In this document: piece after piece, positions 15,165 through 43,593 of the stretch
Layout of the letters: each line of letters opens with the position of its first letter
Position numbering within the stretch: the first letter of the stretch is position 1
From: an uncultured Candidatus Saccharibacteria bacterium
GTDB taxonomy: Bacteria > Patescibacteriota > Minisyncoccia > Phycocordibacterales > PALSA-1337
Length of the DNA stretch: 64,000 nucleotides
Assembly (NCBI GenBank): GCA_964492835.1
Contig: CAZBLC010000002.1
Span: forward strand, 7,375 to 71,374
Direction of reading: 5' to 3'
Program-made: the position numbers and the translations under genes
Notes under the pieces: generated by a model
The model's input: only the letters and a program-made list of their open reading frames with translations
The model's database searches: none
Told to the model about the DNA's origin: nothing

Positions 15165-16628
15165 CTATTTAACCTCTTCCCATGACAAAGTAGTATATTG
15201 ATTTGATGTTAACGGGAAGCTTGGTGGTGGAGCGTATAGCAGGTTTCCATCATATATGATCTCACGTATGGTGTATCCTGATGATATTGAAGCTGCACTA
15301 CCCCAAGCAAAACCATATCTCTTGTTAGTACCAATCATTCCGTAGAGTGTAAGCTTGTTCTCCTTATGTGTAGAACCGCAGTTGCTTGAATAGTAATACC
15401 TTCCGGCACGACCGTTCTGTGCCATAAGGGCGGCATCTATTCTTAGATTCTCATCACCATCAAAGTCGTTGTATAGCCCGGTTGTAATATTACCCTGAGC
15501 AATTAGAGCTATTGCATCCTGTCCGTCATAGTTGGTATATAGCAGATCGTCATTTATGATAATATTCTTCCATGTTGATGGACTATCTGGAAACTTACCG
15601 GCTGCAATTGTTACTCTCGCTGAATTAATATCACCATCTACCCATACGTGATCCTCAACAAACACAATTCCATTTGCTGGTATTGCTGAGTTCTCAATGA
15701 ACGTCTGTGCACCTCCTGTATTGTTTATACTCCACACTCCCCACCCTGTCTCACTCTGCGAGTTATTACAATTAACTGGAGCTGATCTAAGAGAGTTAAC
15801 TCTGTAAATATCGAATGTATCATTCGTCTTAAGTACAATATGATATCCCTGTGCGCCTGATGCGGCATAGTACTTACCACCAGATATTGCATTTGCTTTC
15901 ATTGAAGACAAATCTGTTGTTATACCTGTGAAATCAACTACAGCTACTGGAAACTGTCTACCTGCCATAAACACATCTGGTCTACTAGGTACAACTGCAG
16001 GTGGTGTTGTATCGTTATTCAATTCTGAAGGATTAAGAGTTGTATATACTCCGAACTGATACCAGTTACTACTCTGATCTGTATCAATATATTTAGTCTT
16101 CGCACTAGTAATTACGTTATGTGCCAGTCCATCAAAATGTATTCCGTCATTTGAATGTATTGGACCGAATACCTCAGTACCAACTCCGAAGTTCATAATA
16201 TCATTTGCTACTACAGCAAACTTTGCAAATGATGGTATAGCGAGTGATACTTGCAGTGTTCTAGATACAGATGGGTCTGATATTACAGTTCCCTTCGACT
16301 TTATCTTAATCAAAGTAGAACCTACCAATGGAGGTGTGATAGTTAGAGCAAACTGACCAATTACATTACCATCCTTGTCCTCAAAATCATGAATGAATGG
16401 ACCATTTGTAGTAGTTGCATTTCCATCTTTATAGTCATTTGATGCATGAGCAAGATGCCATCTATAGTAATCAACTCCAGCTTCAGCTATCTGCATCGCT
16501 TGTTCTCTAGCTGTTAGCTGTCTTGTACTCTTAAGCATACTTCCTCCCCAATTAACTAAGGCTGATGTAACAACCATAGCTATGACTCCAAAGACCAGAA
16601 CGTTTACTAAAATAAATCCTTTTTTCAT
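15165..16628 (-). CDS. pilin-like / pseudopilin-like protein with atypical class-III signal
   Basis: 487 aa. N-terminus MKKGFILVNVLVFGVIAMVVTSAL resembles a prepilin leader plus hydrophobic helix but has N rather than E at +5. Lies directly upstream of two canonical prepilin genes. Confidence 0.4.
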   Translation of the reverse strand: MKKGFILVNVLVFGVIAMVVTSALVNWGGSMLKSTRQLTAREQAMQIAEAGVDYYRWHLAHASNDYKDGNATTTNGPFIHDFEDKDGNVIGQFALTITPPLVGSTLIKIKSKGTVISDPSVSRTLQVSLAIPSFAKFAVVANDIMNFGVGTEVFGPIHSNDGIHFDGLAHNVITSAKTKYIDTDQSSNWYQFGVYTTLNPSELNNDTTPPAVVPSRPDVFMAGRQFPVAVVDFTGITTDLSSMKANAISGGKYYAASGAQGYHIVLKTNDTFDIYRVNSLRSAPVNCNNSQSETGWGVWSINNTGGAQTFIENSAIPANGIVFVEDHVWVDGDINSARVTIAAGKFPDSPSTWKNIIINDDLLYTNYDGQDAIALIAQGNITTGLYNDFDGDENLRIDAALMAQNGRAGRYYYSSNCGSTHKENKLTLYGMIGTNKRYGFAWGSAASISSGYTIREIIYDGNLLYAPPPSFPLTSNQYTTLSWEEVK

Positions 16629-17236
16629 AAATTATCTTTTAAATTTCTAAAATTTACTTGTGTGGTATATGTTCTGATTACTGGAGACTTATTCGGATCG
16701 GCATCGATCATTAGATTGATCTTTACTAGATGTGCATTTGTTACTGTTATAGGTTGTGTGAGAGGACTACTAGTACCTGCATAGTTGCTATCATAATATT
16801 CAAATAAAGGACTTGAAGTAGCATTCTTAACATTGTATGCAAGAGTACTGAATGTCTCATTGGCTGAGTTATACGTTAGTGGATTACCACTTGGCTTTAT
16901 ACTTCCCCTCTTTAGGGTTGTGGTTGCGATATAGTATCTGATTTTTTCTTTTAATCCGTCAGTATCTGTATCGCTATAGAAAGTAATGGTATTTGTTGCT
17001 GCTGTTTGTATTGCGAATGATCCATCGTTTCCTGGTGATGCTGTTCTTAATTCTCGGACCATAACACGTAGAACATTTCTTGCATCCTGCGCACTTGTAA
17101 GTGAGTCTTGTGAGTATTTGTTATTAACAAATACATCTCTTTGGAAACTTCCAACTGCAACTGCAATAATTCCTACAATTGCAGTAACAACAACTATCTC
17201 TGCTAATGTAAATCCTTTTGTATAGTATATTTTCAT
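16625..17236 (-). CDS. type IV pilin / pseudopilin (prepilin-type N-terminal cleavage/methylation domain)
   Basis: 203 aa. N-terminus …YYTKGFTLAEIVVVTAIVGIIA has the canonical G/FTLAE prepilin peptidase site. Confidence 0.8.
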   Translation of the reverse strand: MKIYYTKGFTLAEIVVVTAIVGIIAVAVGSFQRDVFVNNKYSQDSLTSAQDARNVLRVMVRELRTASPGNDGSFAIQTAATNTITFYSDTDTDGLKEKIRYYIATTTLKRGSIKPSGNPLTYNSANETFSTLAYNVKNATSSPLFEYYDSNYAGTSSPLTQPITVTNAHLVKINLMIDADPNKSPVIRTYTTQVNFRNLKDNL

Positions 17237-19023
17237 TATGGTGTAAGTATTATCTCACTTTCTTGCCATGATGCACTAACATCCACATCAGCTGATGCTG
17301 TTGTATATCCATCTTTTACTACCTCTATATGATAGCTTCCTGCTGATAGTCCTGAGAATATCACTTGTCCTGGTGGAGTACATGAGGAAGTAACTGTGAA
17401 TGATACGTCTGAAATATTAGGTGTAGTTGTTGTACTTTGTGAGCTTAAGAATATCTTGTACCTAGCATATCTATCTCCATTGTGAGCAGAAGATATTACG
17501 GAGTTTGGTGAAGTATAGTATGTACCTGATGTTCCGTCTGGTCCTTTGTATGCCCACGTTGTAGTTGATGAAGTAGCATTTGTTGCGAATTGAAACCTCA
17601 CGCTATTAGCACCACTAGTTACTGGTTGATCATTAGGACTCCAGATTAGGTTATAGAAATTACTTATATATCCCGTATCTATAGTTGATGACTCAATAAC
17701 TCCATTTAGGTTATATTCTCCGAAAGCATTCTTTAACTTCACCTCCCCATTTGGACTTGTTACATCTATATTTCCATCATCACTAAAATATCTAGTTTTA
17801 TCTGTATATATAATTTGACTATCTCCACCCGACCAATCTGTCTGATTGATATATCCCCTGCCAGTAATTGCTGTGTCTGAGAATGAATTCCTTGTTATAG
17901 TCACCTCTGCATCTGATATTGGTAATTGCGTTGCTCCATCCTTAACTGTCACAAGAAGTCTATTAGCATCCTTAGGTGCGACAATTACGTTTATACTCTG
18001 ATTTGTATTTGGTCCTACATCTATTGGATTAAGTGGGTTTAGTCCAATGACATCATAACTACCATCTATACCTCGTATGGTATATGAATCCCATTCGATA
18101 CCAGAACTTGAATATTCGCCAGATGCATTAGTTATTAAATCTTGTGAATACTTAGCTAGATTTAATCCAATCTTTTTTTCTCCTGTCAGATTAAAATCCA
18201 TACTAGGTATTACCGTACACTCTGGAGTTACACTTGATATGGTTAATGATGATAGCCTATCAATTGAAAAACTAATTTGAGTTAGTTGTTGAATGATAAC
18301 GGTTGCATGTGGTTTAGTTGGACTTGGATTACCTCCTGTTACTGCATATGTCCTGTCAGTTGAGTATCCACTCTTTGTTACCGTTATCTGATAGCTATCA
18401 GCACTTGGTGATGCATCTACTACTTGCAGTAGCCCATCGTTATCAGTGACATCATTAATTAATATATTTGGTGTAACGCTATTGTTAACAATAGTTACAC
18501 TAGCATCTGGTACTGGCACTCCATTGGAATCAAAGACTTTAACGAAGAGTGCTCCATTGGTCGATGCGGTCTCTAGGTTCTTTGGCGCTACCCTAGTTGT
18601 TAATGTTATTGGAGTAAAGTTCTTACATGTAGGACAATTAACCTCTACTTCTACAGATTTGTTATCAGCTGGTGACAGGTCATTTGTTGTACTCCCTATC
18701 TGTCCATCGAATGGTAAATCTACGTTTCGTATTGTTGTAGTTACTACAAAAGAAATATTACTTCTAGTTAGATTCTGTATATGAGGTATCTTACCATTAG
18801 GTACTCCTCCGGGAATTCCGACATCTGTATATGAAAGGTTCCTTATTATCTCAAATTGTTCATTAGCAAGATTTAATGCAATTATCTTGTATTGATTCTG
18901 ATTGATTAGAGCGAACAATCCTAGATATGCTTGATAGCTTGCAGTAGCTATCACAAGGAATACTCCAACAGAGACAACTGTCTCTATTAGTGTGAATCCT
19001 CTTTTTTTAAAAGAATTAAACAT
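17236..19023 (-). CDS. large prepilin-type protein (pilus-associated adhesin-like minor pilin)
   Basis: 595 aa. N-terminus …KKRGFTLIETVVSVGVFLVIA is a canonical prepilin signal. The rest is Thr/Ser/Asn-rich beta-rich sequence, consistent with a tip or adhesin-type pilin. Confidence 0.65.
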   Translation of the reverse strand: MFNSFKKRGFTLIETVVSVGVFLVIATASYQAYLGLFALINQNQYKIIALNLANEQFEIIRNLSYTDVGIPGGVPNGKIPHIQNLTRSNISFVVTTTIRNVDLPFDGQIGSTTNDLSPADNKSVEVEVNCPTCKNFTPITLTTRVAPKNLETASTNGALFVKVFDSNGVPVPDASVTIVNNSVTPNILINDVTDNDGLLQVVDASPSADSYQITVTKSGYSTDRTYAVTGGNPSPTKPHATVIIQQLTQISFSIDRLSSLTISSVTPECTVIPSMDFNLTGEKKIGLNLAKYSQDLITNASGEYSSSGIEWDSYTIRGIDGSYDVIGLNPLNPIDVGPNTNQSINVIVAPKDANRLLVTVKDGATQLPISDAEVTITRNSFSDTAITGRGYINQTDWSGGDSQIIYTDKTRYFSDDGNIDVTSPNGEVKLKNAFGEYNLNGVIESSTIDTGYISNFYNLIWSPNDQPVTSGANSVRFQFATNATSSTTTWAYKGPDGTSGTYYTSPNSVISSAHNGDRYARYKIFLSSQSTTTTPNISDVSFTVTSSCTPPGQVIFSGLSAGSYHIEVVKDGYTTASADVDVSASWQESEIILTP

Positions 19024-20240
19024 TATATTACATTGACCAATGAATACATTGGAGAAATCATAGCCACAGCAAAGAATCCTACAGCTGCCCCTATAAATAC
19101 CATTAGGAATGGTTCTATGATTGTAGACATATCTTTTGTCTTTTGATCTACATCGTCTTCATAATATACAGCAACACCAAGTAGCATCTCCCCCATCTTA
19201 CCTGTCTCCTCACCTACACTTATCATCTCCCCTAGAAATATTGGATAGAATTTTTCATTTTCAGTAAATATCTTTGATATTGGATCTCCTTTTTCAATTG
19301 CTTGCTGTACTTCATCTAGTATCGCTTTATAGTGTACGTTTTGTATGACATCTTTAGTTATCTTAACCGACTCAACCACATCAACTCCTGAGGTTAGTAG
19401 TGATGCTAGAGTTCTTGCTGTTCTTGCAGCATTTACTTCTTTAATTAGATTACCGAATACTGGTATCTTAAGAACATAGTAATGTATTAGACTCTTACCT
19501 CTTACAGTCTTTGAGATATAGAAGATGAGACCAGTTAGGGCTATGAGTGCAGCTAGTACTAGTAGTCCATGATCACGCAATGCATTACTTACGAACAATA
19601 CTAGTTTGGTTGATGCTGGTAGTTCTACCTTGAGCTCTGTAAATGTCTTCATTAGAGTAGGTACTATGAAGGTAAGCATAAGTACAGTAACTACAATCAT
19701 TGCGAATACGATTATGCTTGGATACATCATCGCTCCCTTTATTCTCTTCTGTAGTGCATATGACTTATCCATCTGATTCCCCACGATCTTTAGGGACTCA
19801 GCTAGATTACCACTCTGCTCCCCTGCAGATACCATGGAAATGAATATTGGAGAGAATACTTTTTTAAATTGTGACATTGCCTGGCTCAATGTCTTACCTT
19901 CACCTATTTCTTTCTGTAGGCTAATTAATATATTCTTTAATTCCTTGTTCTTCGTCTGTCTCTCCATAACAGAAAGAGCTCTTGATAGCGCTAGACCTGC
20001 AACAATCATAGAACCAAGATTACGAGCGAAATTAATTTTATCCTGTGGCTTTACGGAGTGCATGAATGGAAGATCGATAGATATATTCTTTATGGACCTT
20101 GATGAACTCTCCTTGTACTCCACTATTTCATCTCCCCCTTCCTTTATTATCTTGTACAATTCATAACGATCAGAAGCATCCTTCTCTCCCTTGTATACCT
20201 CACCATTAGATTTTCGAGCTTTGAATATGAAATGTGACAT
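19023..20240 (-). CDS. pilC: type IV pilus assembly platform protein PilC (GspF family)
   Basis: 405 aa, two GspF repeats, three TM segments. Start overlaps the stop of the large pilin gene. Confidence 0.85.
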   Translation of the reverse strand: MSHFIFKARKSNGEVYKGEKDASDRYELYKIIKEGGDEIVEYKESSSRSIKNISIDLPFMHSVKPQDKINFARNLGSMIVAGLALSRALSVMERQTKNKELKNILISLQKEIGEGKTLSQAMSQFKKVFSPIFISMVSAGEQSGNLAESLKIVGNQMDKSYALQKRIKGAMMYPSIIVFAMIVVTVLMLTFIVPTLMKTFTELKVELPASTKLVLFVSNALRDHGLLVLAALIALTGLIFYISKTVRGKSLIHYYVLKIPVFGNLIKEVNAARTARTLASLLTSGVDVVESVKITKDVIQNVHYKAILDEVQQAIEKGDPISKIFTENEKFYPIFLGEMISVGEETGKMGEMLLGVAVYYEDDVDQKTKDMSTIIEPFLMVFIGAAVGFFAVAMISPMYSLVNVI

Positions 20241-20241
20241 A

Positions 20242-21987
20242 CTATTCAGATATTACTCTTAATACTTCCTCTATTGTTGTATTACCCTGTACCGCATTAA
20301 ATATTCCATCCTCAAGCATTGTAATCATTCCCTCCTTCTTAGCCTGAGTCTCTATATCACTACTTGTTGAGCCTTTTATGATCAAGTCCTTTATAGTCTG
20401 AGTTACCTTCAGTACTTCATGTATACCTACTCGACTCTTGTATCCATCGTCTTCTTTAGATGGGACTGGTTTCCAGAATGGAATTTTAGTCCAATCATCT
20501 ATGTTCACTATCTTTTCATCCTTTAGAGTCTTTAATACCCTGTCTAGATCTACAGTTTTACCAAGAGCGACTACTTCTTCCTTTGTTAGGAAATATTTTT
20601 CTTTCTTTTCGCTCAGTCTTCTTACAAGTCTCTGAGCAATGATTATGTTGATTGTAGATACCAGTAGAAAAGGTTCTATCTTCATATCAAGTAGTCTTGG
20701 TATTGCTCCTGCAGCTGAGTTTGTATGGAGTGTTGATAGCACTAAGTGTCCAGTTAGAGCAGCATTTACTGCAAGTGATGCTGTCTCATTGTCTCGGATC
20801 TCTCCCACCATTATGATATCTGGATCCTGACGAACTAGTGTTCTTAGTCCTGAAGCAAATGTAAATCCAATTTCTGGTTTAACTTGTGTCTGATTGATTC
20901 TCTTCATCTGATACTCTACTGGATCTTCAATTGTTGAAATGTTTACATCTGGTTGGTTTAGGATATCTAGTATTGTGTATAGCGTAGTAGTCTTACCTGA
21001 ACCTGTAGGTCCTGTTGTTAGTATCATTCCTGTAGTTAACTTTGTCGCATTGTGTATTCTCTCCAATCCTTCTCCATGAAATCCTAAGTATTCTAGAGTA
21101 AATCCAGATACGCTCTCTCTAAGTAGTCTCATTACGGTCTTTTCTCCATAGTATGTTGGGAGTATTGATACACGGAAACTAACCTTCTCTGTATTCATCT
21201 CAATCTTAAATCTTCCGTCTTGTGGTAGTCTCTTTTCATCTAGTTTTAGATTCGACAATACCTTTATACGTGCAGTTATAGATGCTTCTGCATTCTTTGG
21301 TAAAACCATGGCATCGTGTAATAGCCCATCGATACGGTATCTTACTAATAGCTGATCATCCATTGGCTCTATATGTATATCTGATGCATCTTGTATGATT
21401 GCATGCTTTAGAAGTGTATCTACTATACGTACCACTGGTAGATCCTCTGCTATCTTCTTTAGGTCCTCCTCTGTTGCAGGGTTCCCTGACTCTTCTTGTA
21501 TTGTCTTAAGTGTGGCTGATTCTTTTTGGATTATATCTCCGAACTCTGCTTTAAGAGTTTTTTGATATTGGATGATAACATTCTTCATTGACTCTACATC
21601 TGTAAGTCTTGGGAGAATCTTAAGGTTTACCTTTTTCTTAATGAAATCTATTGCTGATAGGTCATCAACATCAAGCATAGCTACTTCAAGAGTAGTATCG
21701 TCTTTCTTAAATGCAATTATGTTATGTGTACGTGCTACTGGTTCTGGTATTAGGGATAGCGTATCAAAAGGTATTTTTCTGTCTTTAAGGTCTACGAATG
21801 GTATTCCAAGTACATATGCCTGCATACGACGTAGATTGTCTTCGGTTATCTTTCCTGTACTTACCAGAACCTCTCCAAGTCTGATACCTTTTTCGTCTGC
21901 TTCTTTTTGGGCAATATCAAGATCAGATCTTGATACTAAGTTAGAATCAATTATGAACTTATTCAACTGTGAATCTTCGATGAACAT
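20242..21987 (-). CDS. pilB: type IV pilus assembly ATPase PilB (GspE family)
   Basis: 581 aa. Walker A GPTGSGKTTTLY, Asp box, His box. N-terminal GspE_N region. Confidence 0.9.
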   Translation of the reverse strand: MFIEDSQLNKFIIDSNLVSRSDLDIAQKEADEKGIRLGEVLVSTGKITEDNLRRMQAYVLGIPFVDLKDRKIPFDTLSLIPEPVARTHNIIAFKKDDTTLEVAMLDVDDLSAIDFIKKKVNLKILPRLTDVESMKNVIIQYQKTLKAEFGDIIQKESATLKTIQEESGNPATEEDLKKIAEDLPVVRIVDTLLKHAIIQDASDIHIEPMDDQLLVRYRIDGLLHDAMVLPKNAEASITARIKVLSNLKLDEKRLPQDGRFKIEMNTEKVSFRVSILPTYYGEKTVMRLLRESVSGFTLEYLGFHGEGLERIHNATKLTTGMILTTGPTGSGKTTTLYTILDILNQPDVNISTIEDPVEYQMKRINQTQVKPEIGFTFASGLRTLVRQDPDIIMVGEIRDNETASLAVNAALTGHLVLSTLHTNSAAGAIPRLLDMKIEPFLLVSTINIIIAQRLVRRLSEKKEKYFLTKEEVVALGKTVDLDRVLKTLKDEKIVNIDDWTKIPFWKPVPSKEDDGYKSRVGIHEVLKVTQTIKDLIIKGSTSSDIETQAKKEGMITMLEDGIFNAVQGNTTIEEVLRVISE

Positions 21988-22030: not shown

Positions 22031-23701
22031 TTAGACTTCCATGTCGAAAACTACGTAGAATGTGGATCCTTTTCCTTCTCCGTCTGAAATTGCTTTGATA
22101 TGTCCCTTATGTGCATCAATTATTTGTTTTGCAATGTATAGCCCTAGACCGGTACCGTATATATTTTGTTTGTTGGCATTGTCTGCTCTAGTGAATTTAG
22201 CGAACAGCTTTGGCATTACCTCCTTTGATATACCCACACCTGTGTCACGTATACTTAGAGTGATCTTTCTTTCTAACACGTTCTTTACTATTGATATGTC
22301 TATACCACCCCTTGGTGTGTATTTGATTGAATTATCAACTAGATTAGCAACAACCTGCTTTAGCTTGTCCTTATCAGCATGTATCATGAATCTTGTGTTC
22401 ACGCCTTCTGGAGTTGATGTAAAGCTTAGCTTTAGCTCTTTCTTCTCTAGATTGGGTCTCAACTCCCCTATCACGTTATCAACTAACTCTTTTAGATCTA
22501 GAGTTGTAAAGTCATACTTCATAGTTCCCAACTCTATTCTTGATATGTTTAGGTAATCATTAACAATGTTAGTTAGAGTATTAGCTGAATCATATATTCT
22601 ACTTACAGCTTGCTTTGTCTCTTTGTTTATCTCCCCAAAGTCTCCTTCTAGAATTAGAGATGTATATCCCTTCATAGCTGTTAGTGGAGCTCTTAGTTGA
22701 TGAGTCGCTATTGATACGAACTCTGATTTCTGTTTGTCTAGACTAAGTAGTCTCGTATTGGCTAATTTTAGGTCTTCCGCCAGTGATTCTATCTTTTCTC
22801 GCTGGAGGATTTCTTTTTTAACTGATCTTATCAAAATAATTCCAAAGAATACTGACACTATCAAAGTAATCCAAGTTACTTTATGACTTATACCGATGTC
22901 TTGTATAAATAAGAGCGAGGCAGTCATAGCCCACAATGCAACAACGAGCACATTTGATCCTACCAACTTAAGATCAAATAACTTAAACCTAACTATTGAG
23001 TATGACAGAAGACTTATAAATATAGGCATTCCGAAAAGCCCGTATTGAGCCAAATTCCAGTCTTCTGTAAAACTTCCAGTAATAGCTCCCCATGAAAACG
23101 ATATTAGCATTATAAGTGTACCTATAGTCAAGAAAGCAATTTCTTTCTTTATAGATACTTTTTTCTCTGAAATGAACCTATTAATACCCACTATAACAAG
23201 CCATATAGAGTAAATAGCCTCAATTATATAGGTATAGTATGAATATACGGACTCCTGACTAAGACATGTAGCTACATCAAATGAAGTTAGAAAATACTTT
23301 GTTGGAGTAAGTATAATAACAGGTAAATAAAGTAAAAATATTACTAATTTACTTTTAAAAGACATATCTTTACCGTAAAGTAACACGAACAACAGATATA
23401 ATGCACTGGCATGAACAAGTGGTTCAACAAGTATTTGCATTGCCCAAACAAACATTATGATATCTCCCCTGTTACTTGCCCAAAATATTGAATCCATGAA
23501 TACCCACAATGAGAAAGTTAGGGTTGTAATCAAAACCAATCTATTTGATAGTGACTTACGATTCTTAAGAAATACAAAAATACCGATTACGAGTGATATT
23601 ATTATAATAGGAATATGTGAATAGTACACAAGCGGTGGTACATTATCAGAAATGACCAAAAATTTTGAAGGGTCAAAATTACAAAATGGTATCTGTAGCA
23701 T
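22031..23701 (-). CDS. sensor histidine kinase with N-terminal 7TM sensor domain (orphan)
   Basis: 556 aa. HisKA H-box …ATHQLRAPLTAMKGYTS…. HATPase_c N, G1 (DTGVGI) and G2 (GTGLGL) boxes. The N-terminal 300 aa is polytopic. Confidence 0.85.
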   Translation of the reverse strand: MLQIPFCNFDPSKFLVISDNVPPLVYYSHIPIIIISLVIGIFVFLKNRKSLSNRLVLITTLTFSLWVFMDSIFWASNRGDIIMFVWAMQILVEPLVHASALYLLFVLLYGKDMSFKSKLVIFLLYLPVIILTPTKYFLTSFDVATCLSQESVYSYYTYIIEAIYSIWLVIVGINRFISEKKVSIKKEIAFLTIGTLIMLISFSWGAITGSFTEDWNLAQYGLFGMPIFISLLSYSIVRFKLFDLKLVGSNVLVVALWAMTASLLFIQDIGISHKVTWITLIVSVFFGIILIRSVKKEILQREKIESLAEDLKLANTRLLSLDKQKSEFVSIATHQLRAPLTAMKGYTSLILEGDFGEINKETKQAVSRIYDSANTLTNIVNDYLNISRIELGTMKYDFTTLDLKELVDNVIGELRPNLEKKELKLSFTSTPEGVNTRFMIHADKDKLKQVVANLVDNSIKYTPRGGIDISIVKNVLERKITLSIRDTGVGISKEVMPKLFAKFTRADNANKQNIYGTGLGLYIAKQIIDAHKGHIKAISDGEGKGSTFYVVFDMEV

Positions 23702-23713
23702 TGAATAATTATA

Positions 23714-24679
23714 TCACAGCTTCTTTAGTATAATTTTAGCATCAGATGGTGAAGAACCGTAACTGTATTTAATAGTAACTTGTATATTATCACCTCTACG
23801 CACAGCAACTACTTTATCCAGAGGAATTACGATATCGTTATTCATAAAGTCGGTATCCTCCCTACCAATAACTCTTCCTGATGGAAGAAGTACGTCGCTA
23901 CACACTAATATAGAATTGACTAAGCCAGAGGACTTAATTTTTACTACTATTCTTTTATTAACATTATTTACTTTAACGGTGCGAAAATTTATTGAATCAT
24001 ACAAAACATACCCACTCAAAATACTTGGTCTTTCTTTAATCTCATTTAGAACAAAGAAGGTCTGCGGGCTATTAGTGATATTTATATTACATAGAGATAG
24101 TGAGGACTCTATACCTGACGGGATCACAACACCACCTTTTCTGAGTTTTTTTCTTAAAGCTTTAACAATGTCTATTTGCTTCTCAAAAAACATACCTGTG
24201 TAAATATTCTCACTTATCAGTACATCGATCATATCATCCAGTTTTATCTTCCTAGCATCCATTTTTGATATGAATAAGTTACTTAGGTCATAACCCTTTA
24301 ATTGCAGATATTCTCTTGCACCATTAACTAGTAAAAATACGTCGTTATTTATTTCACACGAAGTAACCTTTCTCGACATTTGTGAAGAATAGAATGATAA
24401 TATACCGGTACCCAGTCCTGCCTCCATTACACAATCTCCTTTTCTGACCGTCTTTTTGATCTCCTCCAAAAGAGGTATAGTCCTTCCTTTGTCAATCAAA
24501 CAATGCACAGCATCTAGCACACTAAGGCCACTTTTGTGAATATCTGATTCTACAAATCTCTCTGACTCGCTTTTTCTAAGACTAATACTCAACTCTCTTA
24601 TCAAGCCCTTTTTAACACAAAAAGAATATATGTCTTTATATAACTTATTTACGTTGACATGTTTCATTATGCGACTCAT
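23714..24679 (-). CDS. protein arginine N-methyltransferase (PRMT)-like class I SAM methyltransferase
   Basis: 321 aa. Motif I VMEAGLGTGILS (PRMT: VLDVGSGTGILS). The segment DVLISENIYTGMFFEKQIDIV aligns with the PRMT double-E loop ([20 protein letters not shown]) with identical Glu spacing. The 120-aa C-terminal beta-rich region is consistent with a PRMT barrel. Confidence 0.55.
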   Translation of the reverse strand: MSRIMKHVNVNKLYKDIYSFCVKKGLIRELSISLRKSESERFVESDIHKSGLSVLDAVHCLIDKGRTIPLLEEIKKTVRKGDCVMEAGLGTGILSFYSSQMSRKVTSCEINNDVFLLVNGAREYLQLKGYDLSNLFISKMDARKIKLDDMIDVLISENIYTGMFFEKQIDIVKALRKKLRKGGVVIPSGIESSLSLCNINITNSPQTFFVLNEIKERPSILSGYVLYDSINFRTVKVNNVNKRIVVKIKSSGLVNSILVCSDVLLPSGRVIGREDTDFMNNDIVIPLDKVVAVRRGDNIQVTIKYSYGSSPSDAKIILKKL

Positions 24680-24694
24680 GTTATCATATATTTA

Positions 24695-25096
24695 ATGTTA
24701 AAAGTAAAAACAAGAATAGATAAGAGCAGTCATCATGGAATTGGCTTATTTGCTGATGAGTTTATACCAAGTGGTACAATCACATGGAGCTATGATCCAG
24801 GATTCGATCCGACATACACCCATGAGGAGATTGATAGTATGCCACTACTTAACAAAAACAGGTTTATGGACTTCTCTTACATCGACTACAAGCAAAATAA
24901 GTATGTACTTTGTTCAGATGACCAGCGTTTTATCAACCACTCAGATAATCCTAATATAGAATCGACTCCAGATGCAGATAGAGCAATCAAAGACATACAA
25001 ATTGGAGAGGAAATGACATGCGACTATGAAAAATATGAAAAAGATTGGTTCAAGAATAGAAATCTAGACAAGAACTTTAATAAGATAGGACCCTAG
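24695..25096 (+). CDS. SET-domain protein (putative protein lysine methyltransferase)
   Basis: Likely start at the second Met (MLKVKTR…), since the first ATG would overlap the divergent neighbour. HHGIGLFADEFIPSGTI (GxG box), RFINHSDNPN (NHSCxPN-like) and IQIGEEMTCDY (ELTxDY-like) are SET-domain signatures. Confidence 0.7.
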   Translation: MLKVKTRIDKSSHHGIGLFADEFIPSGTITWSYDPGFDPTYTHEEIDSMPLLNKNRFMDFSYIDYKQNKYVLCSDDQRFINHSDNPNIESTPDADRAIKDIQIGEEMTCDYEKYEKDWFKNRNLDKNFNKIGP

Positions 25097-25648
25097 TTTT
25101 TTTCTAACTATAATTAAGGCTATCAGGGTATTGAAAAACACCATATAGATTGGATATAGATACTCAATAAATATCCAATTTTCAACAGAGAGTAAGGCAA
25201 GTAGACTGGCTATGCAAGTGATAATCCAAGGTAAGGCAGATTCAGTATCTGGCTTTAAGTAACTCTTATGGATCGTGGGGAAAATGGCAAAAAAATCTGC
25301 GAGTATATTAAGCACTAATGCCACTACAGGTAAATCTGTGATGAGCCAGAGGCATATACTTATAAATGATGTAGATAGGCACAACAAATCTACACGTGAA
25401 AAACCTCCTTCCCCGTATTTTATCGATAGAAGAAATATTAAAAATGGTCCAACAAGGTAACTCAGTTGGAACCATATAGTGCTTGTATGTCCTGCTGAAT
25501 ACGAACTTAATAAAATTAGCAGCCCTATTATACTTAGCGACATCCAAGTTACCCTACTTGGTATCGTCTTTTTAGTAATTATCGATGTAAAATAAAAAAT
25601 AAATGCCAACAAAGATATTACACCAGACAATTCTCCAAAATAAGACAT
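25064..25648 (-). CDS. hypothetical polytopic membrane protein
   Basis: 194 aa, about 6 predicted TM helices. No recognisable motif. Confidence 0.45.
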   Translation of the reverse strand: MSYFGELSGVISLLAFIFYFTSIITKKTIPSRVTWMSLSIIGLLILLSSYSAGHTSTIWFQLSYLVGPFLIFLLSIKYGEGGFSRVDLLCLSTSFISICLWLITDLPVVALVLNILADFFAIFPTIHKSYLKPDTESALPWIITCIASLLALLSVENWIFIEYLYPIYMVFFNTLIALIIVRKKLGSYLIKVLV

Positions 25649-25855
25649 ATTATTTAAAATCTTTAACTGAGTCTATTACAGTAAAGTTCTTTACAACTAC
25701 AAAATTATAGAATGTGATTATTGCGGACAATAACATTAACAAAAAGAATAGTTTTATTAAAAAGATAGATCTTTTGTCCATTACAACAATTATACCTCGC
25801 TAAAAAAATAGTTCAATGGACATTAGTATACCAATCTGATAACCTAACCTAAAAC

Positions 25856-27532
25856 ATGAATAACTGTACTGGTGCGATAGAATATGGTGACGTTGTATAC
25901 TTTTCGCATCTTATACCTATTTTTATATCACTAACCCTATCGCTAAGTGTTTTATTCAAATCTAAATTGTCACGTCTATCGTTACACTTTTTTATATTCA
26001 CATCACTATCGTGTTTATGGCTGGTATTAGATACAGTAACTTGGATCTCGACTGATTATTTTACGATAATCTTATCTTGGATACCTCTAGATCTCGTAAG
26101 CGTCCTATTCTTTATATCAGCAATGCATTTCTTAAGATGTTTATCTGATAGTAATACATATACAAAAAGGCAGTCGGTGTTCGACCTAATTCTAATATCT
26201 CCTTTTGTATTAAGCATACTATTTAAAAAATCTATTGTGGGCTTTGATATTAACTCGTGTGAAGTTATAGATAATACAGAAATTATTGCATATAAATTTA
26301 TTGTCGAGGCAATAATAATTCTCAGGATTGTTATTATGAGTAAAATTGGATGGTATAAAAAAGGTATCTCAATTGTCACAATCGCAATACTAGCCTTTTT
26401 GATTTCTTTCTCTATTACTGGTCTTGTATCTAGTCTGACAGGTATATACGAAATCAATATGTATAGTCTTTTTATATTGCCTATATCTCTTTTTATAGTT
26501 ATCTTCTCGGTAATTGACTTCAATACATTCAGCCTTAGGACGGATAGCCAGAAAATTGTAGTTTATATACTCATACTACTTGCAATGGTACAGATGTTTT
26601 TTATTAGGAAGGACAACTACTTAATAGACATAGTTAACATAGTTCTATATTTATCACTTGGCAAACTACTGATGAAATCAATAAATAATGAAATAGCTAG
26701 TACTAAAAATATAACAATTAGACTTGATCGTACTGACAAGCTAAATAGCAACCTAAACCAAATAATCCTTGACCAAACTTCAGAAATCAGACATGCATAT
26801 GAAATGGAGAAGAAATCTAAACGTGAACTAGAAAAACTAAGTGAGACTAAAGATAAGTTCATAAATATAATCCAACACAATCTAAGAGTACCCATTACCA
26901 GAATTAGTAATGAATTAAGTAAACTTAATAATTCAAATAAAGAAATTAATACAAAAGATGTTAATAGTCAGATCAACCACTTAAGGAGAGTTGCGGATGA
27001 CCTGAAGGATATTTCCAAAATCCAACTAGGTTCACAAATACTAAACCTGTCATCCTCAAGTGTATTGCCTCTACTTGAAGAAGTAATTGATGAACTTAGA
27101 ATTGATATACTGAAATCAAACATTACAGTCTTCCTCCCTATCGAAGATATACATTGGCCTAAAATAAATATTGATCAAAACAAAATTAAAGAAGTCCTCT
27201 TTGTGGTAATAGAGAATGCAATAAGATACAACAAGAAAGATGGAACTATTGAGATTAAGACGGACGGCAAGCAAGATTACTTTACTATTGAAATCTCTAA
27301 CACTGGTATTGGTATATCAAATACTGAAATAAACAAATTATTTGATAGAACATTCTACAGAAGTGATAGAGCGAGAGAGATTAATCCAACAGGTATGGGT
27401 ATTGGATTGTATGTTTCTAGATCAATTATCGAAGCTCATCATGGTAATTTAGATATATACCCAGACAGCAATAACATTGTAACTGTTAGTATATCAATAC
27501 CATACGATTTTCTTAAAGAGAGCCTTAGTTAG
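25856..27532 (+). CDS. sensor histidine kinase with N-terminal 7TM sensor domain (orphan, paralog of 22031-23701)
   Basis: 558 aa. H-box …IIQHNLRVPITRIS…. HATPase_c (ENAIRYNKKDGTIEI…, SNTGIGIS, GMGIGLYVSRSIIEAHHG). The N-terminal TM region is similar to the other kinase. Confidence 0.85.
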   Translation: MNNCTGAIEYGDVVYFSHLIPIFISLTLSLSVLFKSKLSRLSLHFFIFTSLSCLWLVLDTVTWISTDYFTIILSWIPLDLVSVLFFISAMHFLRCLSDSNTYTKRQSVFDLILISPFVLSILFKKSIVGFDINSCEVIDNTEIIAYKFIVEAIIILRIVIMSKIGWYKKGISIVTIAILAFLISFSITGLVSSLTGIYEINMYSLFILPISLFIVIFSVIDFNTFSLRTDSQKIVVYILILLAMVQMFFIRKDNYLIDIVNIVLYLSLGKLLMKSINNEIASTKNITIRLDRTDKLNSNLNQIILDQTSEIRHAYEMEKKSKRELEKLSETKDKFINIIQHNLRVPITRISNELSKLNNSNKEINTKDVNSQINHLRRVADDLKDISKIQLGSQILNLSSSSVLPLLEEVIDELRIDILKSNITVFLPIEDIHWPKINIDQNKIKEVLFVVIENAIRYNKKDGTIEIKTDGKQDYFTIEISNTGIGISNTEINKLFDRTFYRSDRAREINPTGMGIGLYVSRSIIEAHHGNLDIYPDSNNIVTVSISIPYDFLKESLS

Positions 27533-43320: not shown

Positions 43321-43593
43321 ATGAACAAAGCAGGAATTGTAGATGCAGTACACGCAGTACTAGGAGGAACAAAGGTACAAGCTGAACAAGCTGTTGAGAC
43401 TTTGTTAAACTCAATCATCGGATCTCTAAAAAAGGGTGAGGAAGTTTCTATCGCAGGTCTAGGTATCTTCTCAGTAAAGGAAAGAGCAGCTCGTGATGCT
43501 CGTAATCCTCGAACTGGAGAGACAATCAAGGTACCAGCTATGAAGGTGCCTAAGTTCAGAGCTGCTAAAGCTTTGAAGGATGCAGTAAAATAG
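43321..43593 (+). CDS. hup: DNA-binding protein HU
   Basis: 90 aa. MNKAGIVDAV…SLKKGEEVSIAGLGIFSVKERAARDARNPRTGETIKVPAMKVPKFRAAKALKDAV is canonical HU/IHF. Confidence 0.9.
   Translation: MNKAGIVDAVHAVLGGTKVQAEQAVETLLNSIIGSLKKGEEVSIAGLGIFSVKERAARDARNPRTGETIKVPAMKVPKFRAAKALKDAVK

Follow-up and report, generated by a model that had tools for sequence, protein, structure and literature searches.

A conserved Patescibacteria gene module combines PRMT-fold and SET-domain methyltransferases with membrane proteins and a histidine kinase

The window analysed here is a stretch of 64,000 nucleotides from an uncultured Candidatus Saccharibacteria bacterium. The locus under study comprises genes for a PRMT-like methyltransferase (MT), a SET-domain protein (SET), a predicted seven-helix membrane protein (MEM), a small membrane protein (SMALL) and two histidine kinases, HK1 and HK2 (Table 1). 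Both methyltransferase reading frames are real as the earlier note had given them, and all the motifs it quoted are present in the translations (GLGTGILS and ISENIYTGMFFE in MT; GIGLFA, NHSDNPN and EEMTCDY in SET). In the public copy, MT starts four codons downstream and comprises 317 residues. The start codons of MT and SET are separated by 15 nt (24680-24694), and there is, therefore, no real intergenic region that could hold the shared promoter proposed in the earlier note. Moreover, SET lies antisense within a gene row that is otherwise entirely on the minus strand, and the 3' ends of SET and MEM overlap by 33 nt. The promoter-like site just upstream of SMALL is the joint-best consensus match (10/12) between positions 21900 and 26100, and the row of minus-strand genes may start from it; it is treated here as a lead, because the promoter and terminator scan showed overall no enrichment over shuffled sequences (13 found against 19.6 expected).

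Table 1. Positions of the genes and other features in the 64,000-nucleotide window.
Feature	Position	Strand	Length	Description
HK1	22031..23701	-	556 aa	Histidine kinase; HisKA E=1.9e-15, HATPase_c E=2.4e-27
MT	23714..24679	-	321 aa	PRMT-fold SAM-dependent methyltransferase
SET	24695..25096	+	133 aa	Minimal SET-domain methyltransferase (predicted)
MEM	25064..25648	-	194 aa	Seven-helix membrane protein, PQ-loop/SWEET/cystinosin fold (model)
SMALL	25650..25781	-	43 aa	Single-pass membrane protein, MDKRS-(TM)-TFYNFVVVKNF
Promoter-like site	25789..25816	-		TTGAAC-16-TATAAT
HK2	25856..27532	+	558 aa	Histidine kinase paralogous to HK1, divergent from SMALL
HU gene	43321..43593			

HK1 begins 12 nt past the stop codon of MT, and its N-terminal domain is polytopic, encompasses about 300 residues and is specific to the module. 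HK2 carries an N-terminal domain of the same type and is found at the same position in the window and in loci L002/L003, L004, L007, L008 and L035. A search for the receiver domain of a cognate response regulator, both across the 64-kb window and next to the Patescibacteria modules, gave no match. The SMALL reading frame has no annotation in the source genome, and its exact sequence was not found in the protein collection.

MT carries the full PRMT core fold with intact SAM-binding and catalytic motifs. A search of the PDB sequences with the single MT sequence returned 58 matches at E<=1, most of them PRMTs, with PRMT6 as the best (1e-6); the non-PRMT matches were a DNA adenine methylase and a protein-isoaspartate methyltransferase, at E>=0.0056. 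The segment SENIYTGMFFE of MT aligns without gaps to SEWMGYGLLHE of PRMT6. With the family profile, the best 59 PDB matches were all PRMTs (lowest E=6.5e-15). The AlphaFold model (pLDDT 90) displays a Rossmann SAM-binding domain followed by a C-terminal beta-barrel, and the best 50 Foldseek matches of this model in the PDB were all PRMT cores, with E values of 7e-19 to 1e-16 and TM scores of 0.61-0.70 over approximately 300-350 alignment columns. No rRNA or small-molecule methyltransferase family scores above the PRMTs, and the PRMT-like assignment of the earlier note is thus borne out by motif I, the double-E loop and the fold. The Pfam search placed SET above the cut-off of its model and gave MT no match to the PRMT-specific ones. 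No curated PRMT model in Pfam or NCBIfam scored above threshold for MT, and the matches that Pfam did return, to generic methyltransferase models or to PrmA (the methyltransferase of ribosomal protein L11), stayed below the cut-offs. The Pfam PrmA model PF06325 reached 16.2 bits against a cut-off of 22 and covered the Rossmann part only, and the NCBIfam PrmA models reached 12-26 bits against cut-offs of 183-327.

The motifs of MT were compared by hhalign with those of PRMT1. In PRMTs, the double-E loop contains two glutamates that grip the substrate guanidinium, and an arginine of helix alphaY is a ligand of the SAM carboxylate. The corresponding glutamates of MT, E157 and E166, are invariant across 69 family members, are separated by eight residues, as in eukaryotic PRMTs, and also align to the PRMT1 loop. 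Motif I (E86, G88, G90, G92) and the acidic post-I residue E109 are likewise invariant. D63 and R66 are invariant and T67 is nearly so; these three residues correspond to the 'D..RT' helix of PRMTs. The THW loop is not kept in MT, where I-G-R stands opposite T-H-W and a conserved DTxF follows; this result is weak, because the two proteins are aligned there with low confidence.

A comparison of MT with eukaryotic PRMTs thus reveals the same Rossmann and beta-barrel core at a sequence identity of about 15-20%. The nearest PRMTs by profile are PRMT7 and PRMT9, and PRMT1, 2, 3, 6, 8 and CARM1 are also matched. By contrast, where PRMTs have a helical dimerisation arm inserted in the barrel, the model has a short segment of 26 residues (199-224) that is mostly non-helical and of lower pLDDT, and MT has a conserved N-terminal helical region of its own of about 55 residues. 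Its genomic partners, membrane proteins and a kinase, also set it apart. MT is classified, from its sequence and fold, as a prokaryotic PRMT-fold methyltransferase, and methylation of a guanidino nitrogen is its putative activity. According to the account of Aravind et al. (2011) in PMC3417536, bacterial PRMT-like 'peptide methylases' adjoin NRPS, dioxygenase and amine-oxidase genes in secondary-metabolite operons, and peptide or metabolite targets, not chromatin, have been proposed for them. MT is also a prokaryotic member of the PRMT radiation, but its family adjoins a PQ-loop protein, a small transmembrane protein and a histidine kinase.

The SET protein matches PF00856 with E=6.4e-12 and 46.3 bits (gathering cut-off 22.4) over profile positions 1-104 of 105, as the SET assignment of the earlier note had implied. 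Its family profile matches the SET domains of MLL3, MLL4 and MLL1 among the PDB sequences (E ~1e-12), and further those of EZH2, NSD2, SETD8 and LegAS4. Residues G15, G17, N81, H82, E106 and Y111 are invariant among 66 homologues, R78 and F79 are nearly invariant, and both motifs that form the SET pseudoknot are found in the sequence. The 133-residue protein is, judged by these signatures, a bona fide minimal SET domain and a predicted N-methyltransferase of lysine-type amines. Like Go1-SET from Methanosarcina mazei, cpnSET/NUE, LegAS4/RomA and BaSET, it consists of a core of about 130 residues in which the GxG, NHS and ExxxDY motifs are present, and it lacks the pre-SET and post-SET zinc clusters. 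The viral vSET is a further minimal SET protein. The known minimal proteins are free-standing or secreted and act on histones or histone-like proteins (cpnSET methylates Hc1 and Go1-SET methylates MC1-alpha; PMC3980110), whereas the SET of the window belongs to a membrane module and has relatives that are fused to a PQ-loop protein.

MEM is the hub of the module. Its structural model, built on a six-sequence alignment, displays seven transmembrane helices in a 3+1+3 fold, and the best structural matches were cystinosin, the KDEL receptor and SWEET. Proline-containing motifs follow helices 1 and 5 of the model, as in PQ-loop proteins. Sequence similarity to these proteins is nonetheless not detectable (no match at E<=1 in Pfam, including the PQ-loop/MtN3 profiles), and the invariant P30 and P124 precede S/N or T in place of Q, so that P-T/P-S stands for PQ; transport by MEM is putative. 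PQLC2, LAAT-1 and Ypq are cationic amino-acid exporters of the PQ-loop class. Two invariant lysines, K77 and K128, are located in conserved loops of MEM that are predicted to be cytoplasmic. The family is bacterial and comprises more than 5000 representative clusters. A phmmer comparison found no match between MEM and the N-terminal domain of the kinase, and the idea that MEM is a paralogue of that domain was dropped. Agr quorum sensing employs the AgrD peptide, the membrane protease AgrB with a catalytic His and Cys, and the kinase AgrC. An Agr-type peptide signalling role for SMALL, MEM and the kinase was rejected because MEM lacks an invariant His/Cys and has a PQ-loop/SWEET fold.

Across genomes, the conserved parts of the module are SMALL, MEM, SET, MT and a histidine kinase with the module-specific polytopic N-terminus. 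All of them occur together in 12 distinct Patescibacteria loci, the window included. The sixth component is a second paralogous kinase, as in the window, or an AdoMet-decarboxylase-like gene in other clades. In a scan of species-representative genomes, MT and SET are adjacent in nine of 12 Patescibacteria loci, but their head-to-head order is not conserved, SET being placed after MT in a tail-to-tail arrangement in L001/L009. The same scan places MEM, SMALL and a histidine kinase within 3 kb of MT in 10 of 19 well-flanked MT loci. Among 29 well-flanked loci anchored on MEM, a histidine kinase is found in 15, SMALL in 13, SET in 12 and MT in 3, and SET occurs without MT in 10. Modules with MT and no SET are found in L012, L063, L070 and L073. 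The two enzymes do not, therefore, form the self-contained Arg plus Lys methylation unit that had been suggested; the conserved unit comprises SMALL, MEM, one or both methyltransferases and the kinase.

Homologues of SMALL were detected by jackhmmer (E 1e-14 to 1e-23) beside the module at 13 distinct loci, and additional metagenome loci have them too. Each complete Patescibacteria module has a kinase with an N-terminal domain of the HK1 type directly after MT, with a gap of 0-20 nt or an overlap in most loci and one gap of about 150 nt. Flanking genes vary among loci and the gene order is rearranged, but the genes of the module remain grouped and its membership is kept. The PRMT-like family occurs in Patescibacteria, Methanothrix and DPANN archaea. 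In Methanothrix, a hybrid histidine kinase follows the PRMT-like gene, without MEM or SMALL; the kinases there lack the N-terminal domain of the Patescibacteria type, and the kinase link there is therefore independent. A literature search on bacterial PRMTs, on SET in Patescibacteria/Candidate Phyla Radiation and on PQ-loop proteins with SET found no account of such a module, which appears to be undescribed so far.

In other organisms, gene fusions place either enzyme type at the C-terminus of MEM. SET is fused there in P0213 and P0275, and since this SET belongs to a different subfamily, the fusion is an independent event. A PRMT-like enzyme occupies the same position in P0218 and in loci L063, L070 and L073. 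In P0227, the C-terminal domain of the MEM homologue is LPG_synthase_C, with which MprF makes an aminoacyl-lipid, aminoacyl-phosphatidylglycerol. MprF likewise carries a cytoplasmic amine-handling enzyme on a polytopic membrane domain, but this domain is unrelated to MEM, and the module of the window has no LPG synthase. L012 has a methyltransferase of the NNMT/PNMT/TEMT family in place of SET (Pfam 4.6e-27), and at least 10 loci have, directly upstream, a gene for a divergent AdoMet_dc-like pyruvoyl decarboxylase whose ESH processing motif is intact. The NNMT-type swap, the AdoMet_dc-like neighbour and the LPG_synthase_C fusion hint that the substrate is a small molecule or a lipid and not a protein. 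No AdoMet_dc-like gene was found within the 64-kb window, an observation that counts against a small-compound model for the window module. A role of MT as an aminopropyltransferase that uses dcSAM from the linked AdoMet_dc gene was judged unlikely because R66, the SAM-carboxylate arginine, is invariant.

Accessory components of sensor kinases are well known; they include the small regulator MgrB of PhoQ, the transporter co-sensors BceAB-BceS and DctA-DcuS, and methylation-based adaptation by CheR/CheB. The module resembles these systems in the genetic coupling of a sensor kinase to the single-pass SMALL, to the transporter-like MEM and to methyltransferases. However, it shows no homology to any of them and has no response regulator nearby, and its methylation would be of the Lys/Arg type on nitrogen, not on the glutamate oxygen as with CheR/CheB.

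Our preferred reading, to which we assign a probability of about 0.4, is that, at the membrane, SET and MT transfer methyl groups to nitrogen atoms of a cationic Lys/Arg-like compound handled by MEM, with the kinase monitoring the process. SET and MT would be soluble enzymes of a membrane module, placed on the cytoplasmic face of MEM, where SET would methylate the amino group and MT the guanidino group of this cationic compound. MEM would bind or carry the compound, which could be a basic amino acid in free form, an amine that arises by decarboxylation, such as agmatine, or perhaps a lipid head group that bears an amine. The kinase, aided by SMALL, would sense the state of the methylation process. 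We infer that the module is unrelated to chromatin. To our knowledge, every characterised SET-domain or PRMT enzyme methylates proteins or peptides, and a non-protein substrate would thus be unprecedented. The Methanothrix hybrid kinase next to a PRMT-like gene, in the absence of MEM and SMALL, points to a kinase-directed role. MEM could also be a mere anchor or, because of the invariant lysines in its conserved cytoplasmic loops, itself a substrate.

Methylation of proteins within the module is a possible, if tentative, alternative: SET and MT would modify lysines and arginines in those portions of SMALL, MEM or the kinase that face the cytoplasm, and would thereby tune kinase signalling, as a Lys/Arg counterpart of CheR-type adaptation with MEM as a transporter-like co-sensor. 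It agrees with the precedent that known SET and PRMT enzymes are all protein or peptide methyltransferases (PMC3980110), with the tight spacing of the MT and kinase genes and the Methanothrix arrangement, and with the invariant lysines in the predicted cytoplasmic loops of MEM; the enzyme-MEM fusions are compatible with an enzyme tethered to its own substrate. In SMALL, the N-terminus reads MD(K/x)K-SK in modules that contain SET, and the lysine pair is missing in all four MT-only modules; this correlation is based on four loci, three of which are related. No arginine in SMALL or in the MEM loops is conserved through all MT-containing modules (R32 is absent in L012), and this alternative leaves the NNMT-family swap, the in-operon pyruvoyl decarboxylase and the MEM-LPG_synthase_C fusion unexplained.

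A chromatin- or effector-type pair of Arg and Lys methyltransferases acting on HU, pilins or host proteins, as envisaged in the earlier note, is improbable, although the known bacterial and archaeal SET targets are histone-like proteins or host histones (PMC3980110). An HU gene lies within the window, but 18 kb away and unlinked in other genomes. In the window, L002 and L004, PilB, PilC and pilin-like genes come next downstream and share the strand; this proximity to type IV pilus genes is confined to the clade of the window, and none lie beside the module in L001, L005, L012 and the many MEM-SET-SMALL-HK operons. As for host proteins, neither enzyme has a signal peptide or transmembrane segment obvious by eye or any other pointer to secretion, and linkage or fusion ties both to MEM at its cytoplasmic C-terminus. 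The neighbours conserved beside the enzymes encode membrane proteins and a kinase, and all three proposed substrates were dropped as no conserved linkage was found. Even less probable is that MT is a housekeeping RNA or ribosomal-protein methyltransferase whose proximity to SET, MEM and the kinase is inherited synteny. Homologues carry the JGI label 'predicted RNA methylase', related Patescibacteria account for many of the loci, and weak sub-threshold matches to PrmA, TRM5, KsgA and HemK-like enzymes were obtained. Those RNA- and PrmA-type matches, however, are far under their cut-offs and cover the Rossmann part only (16 bits against 22 for PrmA; 26 against 327 in NCBIfam), and PRMTs are best both by sequence profile and by full-length fold. 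Retention of the module among differing flanks with shuffled gene order, together with the independent MEM gene fusions, also argues against uncoupled inheritance.

SET and PRMT enzymes are the textbook chromatin writers of eukaryotes, and their prokaryotic roles are almost unknown. The analysis uncovers a prokaryotic PRMT-fold family that is well conserved and, with it, a SET family; both show repeated linkage to a transporter-like membrane protein and a sensor kinase, and in some organisms they are fused to that membrane protein. Speculatively, this would represent an unrecognised prokaryotic system in which SET- and PRMT-type enzymes at the cytoplasmic face of a PQ-loop transporter methylate a free cationic amine or amino acid, or a signalling complex, and whose PRMT-like family would be a close prokaryotic sister group of the eukaryotic PRMT7/9-type enzymes. 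A free amine or amino acid would, if confirmed as the substrate, be the first non-protein substrate of the SET and PRMT families; a target in the signalling complex would be the first case of Lys/Arg-methylation control of a two-component kinase. The module offers testable candidates for pre-chromatin roles of SET and PRMT enzymes, namely metabolite methylation or membrane signalling, and the large uncharacterised MEM family gains a fold and a functional context. Patescibacteria also have reduced genomes in which few signalling modules can be recognised, and this is one of them.

Both open reading frames that the earlier note had described as a head-to-head PRMT and SET pair sharing a promoter region, and every motif quoted for them, were found in the window (G+C content 37%), which is most closely related to metagenome-assembled genomes from Paceibacteria, Taylorbacteria and other Patescibacteria. 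The minus-strand genes form a row in the order SMALL (a small membrane protein), MEM (a seven-helix membrane protein), the PRMT-like gene, the histidine kinase HK1 and the type IV pilus genes, with the SET gene placed on the opposite strand between MEM and the PRMT-like gene. Because the start codons of the SET and PRMT-like genes are separated by 15 nt and the last 33 nt of SET are shared with MEM, the SET gene constitutes an antisense insert in this row.

Coordinates of the module genes and of other features discussed in the text
Feature	Position	Strand	Remarks
Pilin-like proteins with N_methyl motifs	17236-19023, 16625-17236	-	type IV pilus set; one with CarboxypepD_reg domain
PilC	19023-20240	-	type IV pilus set
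PilB ATPase	20242-21987	-	type IV pilus set
Type IV pilus set, whole	16625-21987	-	directly downstream of module, same strand
HK1, histidine kinase	22031..23701	-	start 12 nt past PRMT-like gene
PRMT-like gene	23714..24679	-	ORF, 321 aa
SET gene	24695..25096	+	ORF, 133 aa
MEM	25064..25648	-	ORF, 194 aa, polytopic
SMALL	25650..25781	-	ORF, 43 aa, single-pass
HK2, HK1 paralogue	25856..27532	+	divergent, upstream of minus-strand row
HU homologue	43321-43593	+	phmmer against E. coli HU-alpha, E=2.5e-20

The assignment of the plus-strand protein to the SET family is borne out by Pfam SET, which matches it over the entire length of the model at E=6.4e-12 and 46.3 bits (cut-off 22.4). Across 66 aligned homologues there is no variation at G15, G17, N81, H82, E106 and Y111, the residues of SAM binding and catalysis, and the family profile matches the SET domains of MLL3/4/1, EZH2, NSD2, SETD8 and LegAS4 among solved structures. 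Judged by its sequence, the protein is a minimal SET core devoid of zinc-cluster flanks. The SET proteins already known from bacteria and archaea methylate histones or histone-like proteins, or are secreted as effectors (PMC3980110).

For the PRMT-like protein, curated family libraries yielded nothing above threshold, the matches being of generic class I or PrmA type; profile and fold comparisons place PRMTs at the top, in agreement with the proposed assignment. The single sequence matches mainly PRMTs in the PDB, the best being PRMT6 (1e-6), to which it aligns from motif I through the double-E loop (SENIYTGMFFE with SEWMGYGLLHE, gap-free). With a profile of 69 family members, the top 59 matches are all PRMTs (PRMT9, 6.5e-15; T. 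brucei PRMT7, 1e-14). The AlphaFold model (pLDDT 90, pTM 0.88) displays a Rossmann domain followed by a C-terminal beta-barrel, and each of its 50 best matches in a Foldseek search of the PDB is the catalytic core of a PRMT (E as low as 7e-19, TM 0.61-0.70, about 300-350 alignment columns). Invariant residues of the family fall at PRMT motif I, at the post-I acid, at both glutamates of the double-E loop and in the D..RT helix, which binds the carboxylate of SAM; the THW loop has no recognisable conservation in the family and the dimerization arm appears reduced in the model. On sequence and predicted fold, the protein thus belongs to the PRMT radiation as one of its prokaryotic representatives and is the orthologue of no eukaryotic PRMT. 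PRMT-like peptide methylases of bacteria were previously noted in secondary-metabolite operons (PMC3417536).

In archaea of the Micrarchaeota (L025-L028) the PRMT-like protein exists in longer versions of about 505-597 aa (P0071-P0080), extended at the N-terminus by some 230 aa that are soluble and helical. In Methanotrichaceae (L006 1996-2652; L019-L023), the PRMT-like gene is accompanied in a conserved block by an RNase Z-like gene and the gene of a ~180-aa protein; a hybrid histidine kinase (about 1090 aa) follows it in four of six loci, and in one locus a SET gene of 218 aa is located 2.3 kb upstream.

MEM, which has no match in Pfam or NCBIfam, belongs to a family of 5118 representative clusters (E<=1e-3). 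Among the 150 best representatives, MEM is fused to SET domains of a different subfamily with a post-SET Cys motif (P0213, P0275), to a PRMT-like domain (P0218; hhalign to the window's family, probability 99.7%, E=7.6e-26), and to LPG_synthase_C (the MprF synthase domain), STAS and TPR domains (P0227, P0233, P0264). In all fusions surveyed the enzymes are placed C-terminal to helix 7, an end predicted to be cytoplasmic from the topology of cystinosin and SWEET. SMALL is conserved (MDKKSK...TFYRYxVxKDF) and absent from the public protein collection, and is therefore unannotated in the window. A polytopic domain of about 300 aa that matched no family makes up the N-terminus of both HK1 and HK2, and it recurs in the module kinases. 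No receiver domain or response regulator is encoded in the 64-kb window or beside the modules.

To survey the module, homologues were placed on contigs, species-representative genomes were scanned with the PRMT-like alignment, and loci were searched with HMMs. The complete set of SMALL, MEM, SET, the PRMT-like gene and a kinase with this N-terminal domain occurs in 12 distinct Patescibacteria loci, the window included. Flanking genes vary: pilus genes adjoin the module in the window's clade only, and DnaK/DnaJ, G6PD and DsbB are among the neighbours elsewhere. In at least 10 loci, the gene of a divergent AdoMet-decarboxylase-like pyruvoyl enzyme, scoring right at the TIGR03330 threshold, lies immediately upstream, a position taken by HK2 next to SMALL in the window's clade; L005 has a canonical paralogue in addition. 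Loci with this gene or an NNMT-type enzyme are L001, L005, L010, L011, L012, L013, L016, L034, L036, L037, L063 and L070. An NNMT/PNMT/TEMT-family methyltransferase replaces SET in L012 (5976-6992), and SET lies on the other side of the PRMT-like gene in L001 and L009. A MEM-anchored scan of metagenome contigs revealed as the commonest form a co-directional MEM-SET-SMALL-kinase operon devoid of the PRMT-like gene; another form runs from the AdoMet-decarboxylase-like gene through SMALL and a MEM::PRMT-like fusion to a kinase, with no SET. Across partly redundant loci (L001-L114), SET and MEM are co-directional in 26 of 27 pairs lacking the PRMT-like gene and antisense in all 17 pairs with it, often with a 3' overlap of 8-33 nt. 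SET orientation in this way follows module type, for which transcriptional interference or a toggle is a possible explanation.

The enzyme families, the MEM fold, the gene linkage and the fusions establish that the two putative methyltransferases act together with a membrane protein of predicted PQ-loop type and with a sensor kinase. HU, pilins and host proteins, proposed earlier as substrates, gain no support from gene context: the HU gene is 18 kb from the pair, and the conserved neighbours favour neither of the others. Characterised relatives of the transporter fold of MEM carry cystine or basic amino acids. This fold, the NNMT-type replacement of SET, the decarboxylase encoded in the operon and the MprF-like fusion point to methylation of a cationic Lys/Arg-like small molecule or lipid head group that would be handled by MEM, a tentative reading to which we give a probability of roughly 40%. 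The main rival, in which the enzymes would methylate the module's own proteins and so tune the kinase, is somewhat less probable. It is supported by the protein substrates that, to our knowledge, all known SET and PRMT enzymes have, by Methanothrix, in which a hybrid kinase gene follows the PRMT-like gene and MEM is absent, and by the N-terminal Lys pair of SMALL, which is present in SET-containing modules and missing from all four PRMT-like-only modules.

No account of a module combining SET or PRMT-like enzymes with a PQ-loop protein and a kinase was found in the literature. The two enzymes add new members to kinds already known, and it is their association that appears to be new.
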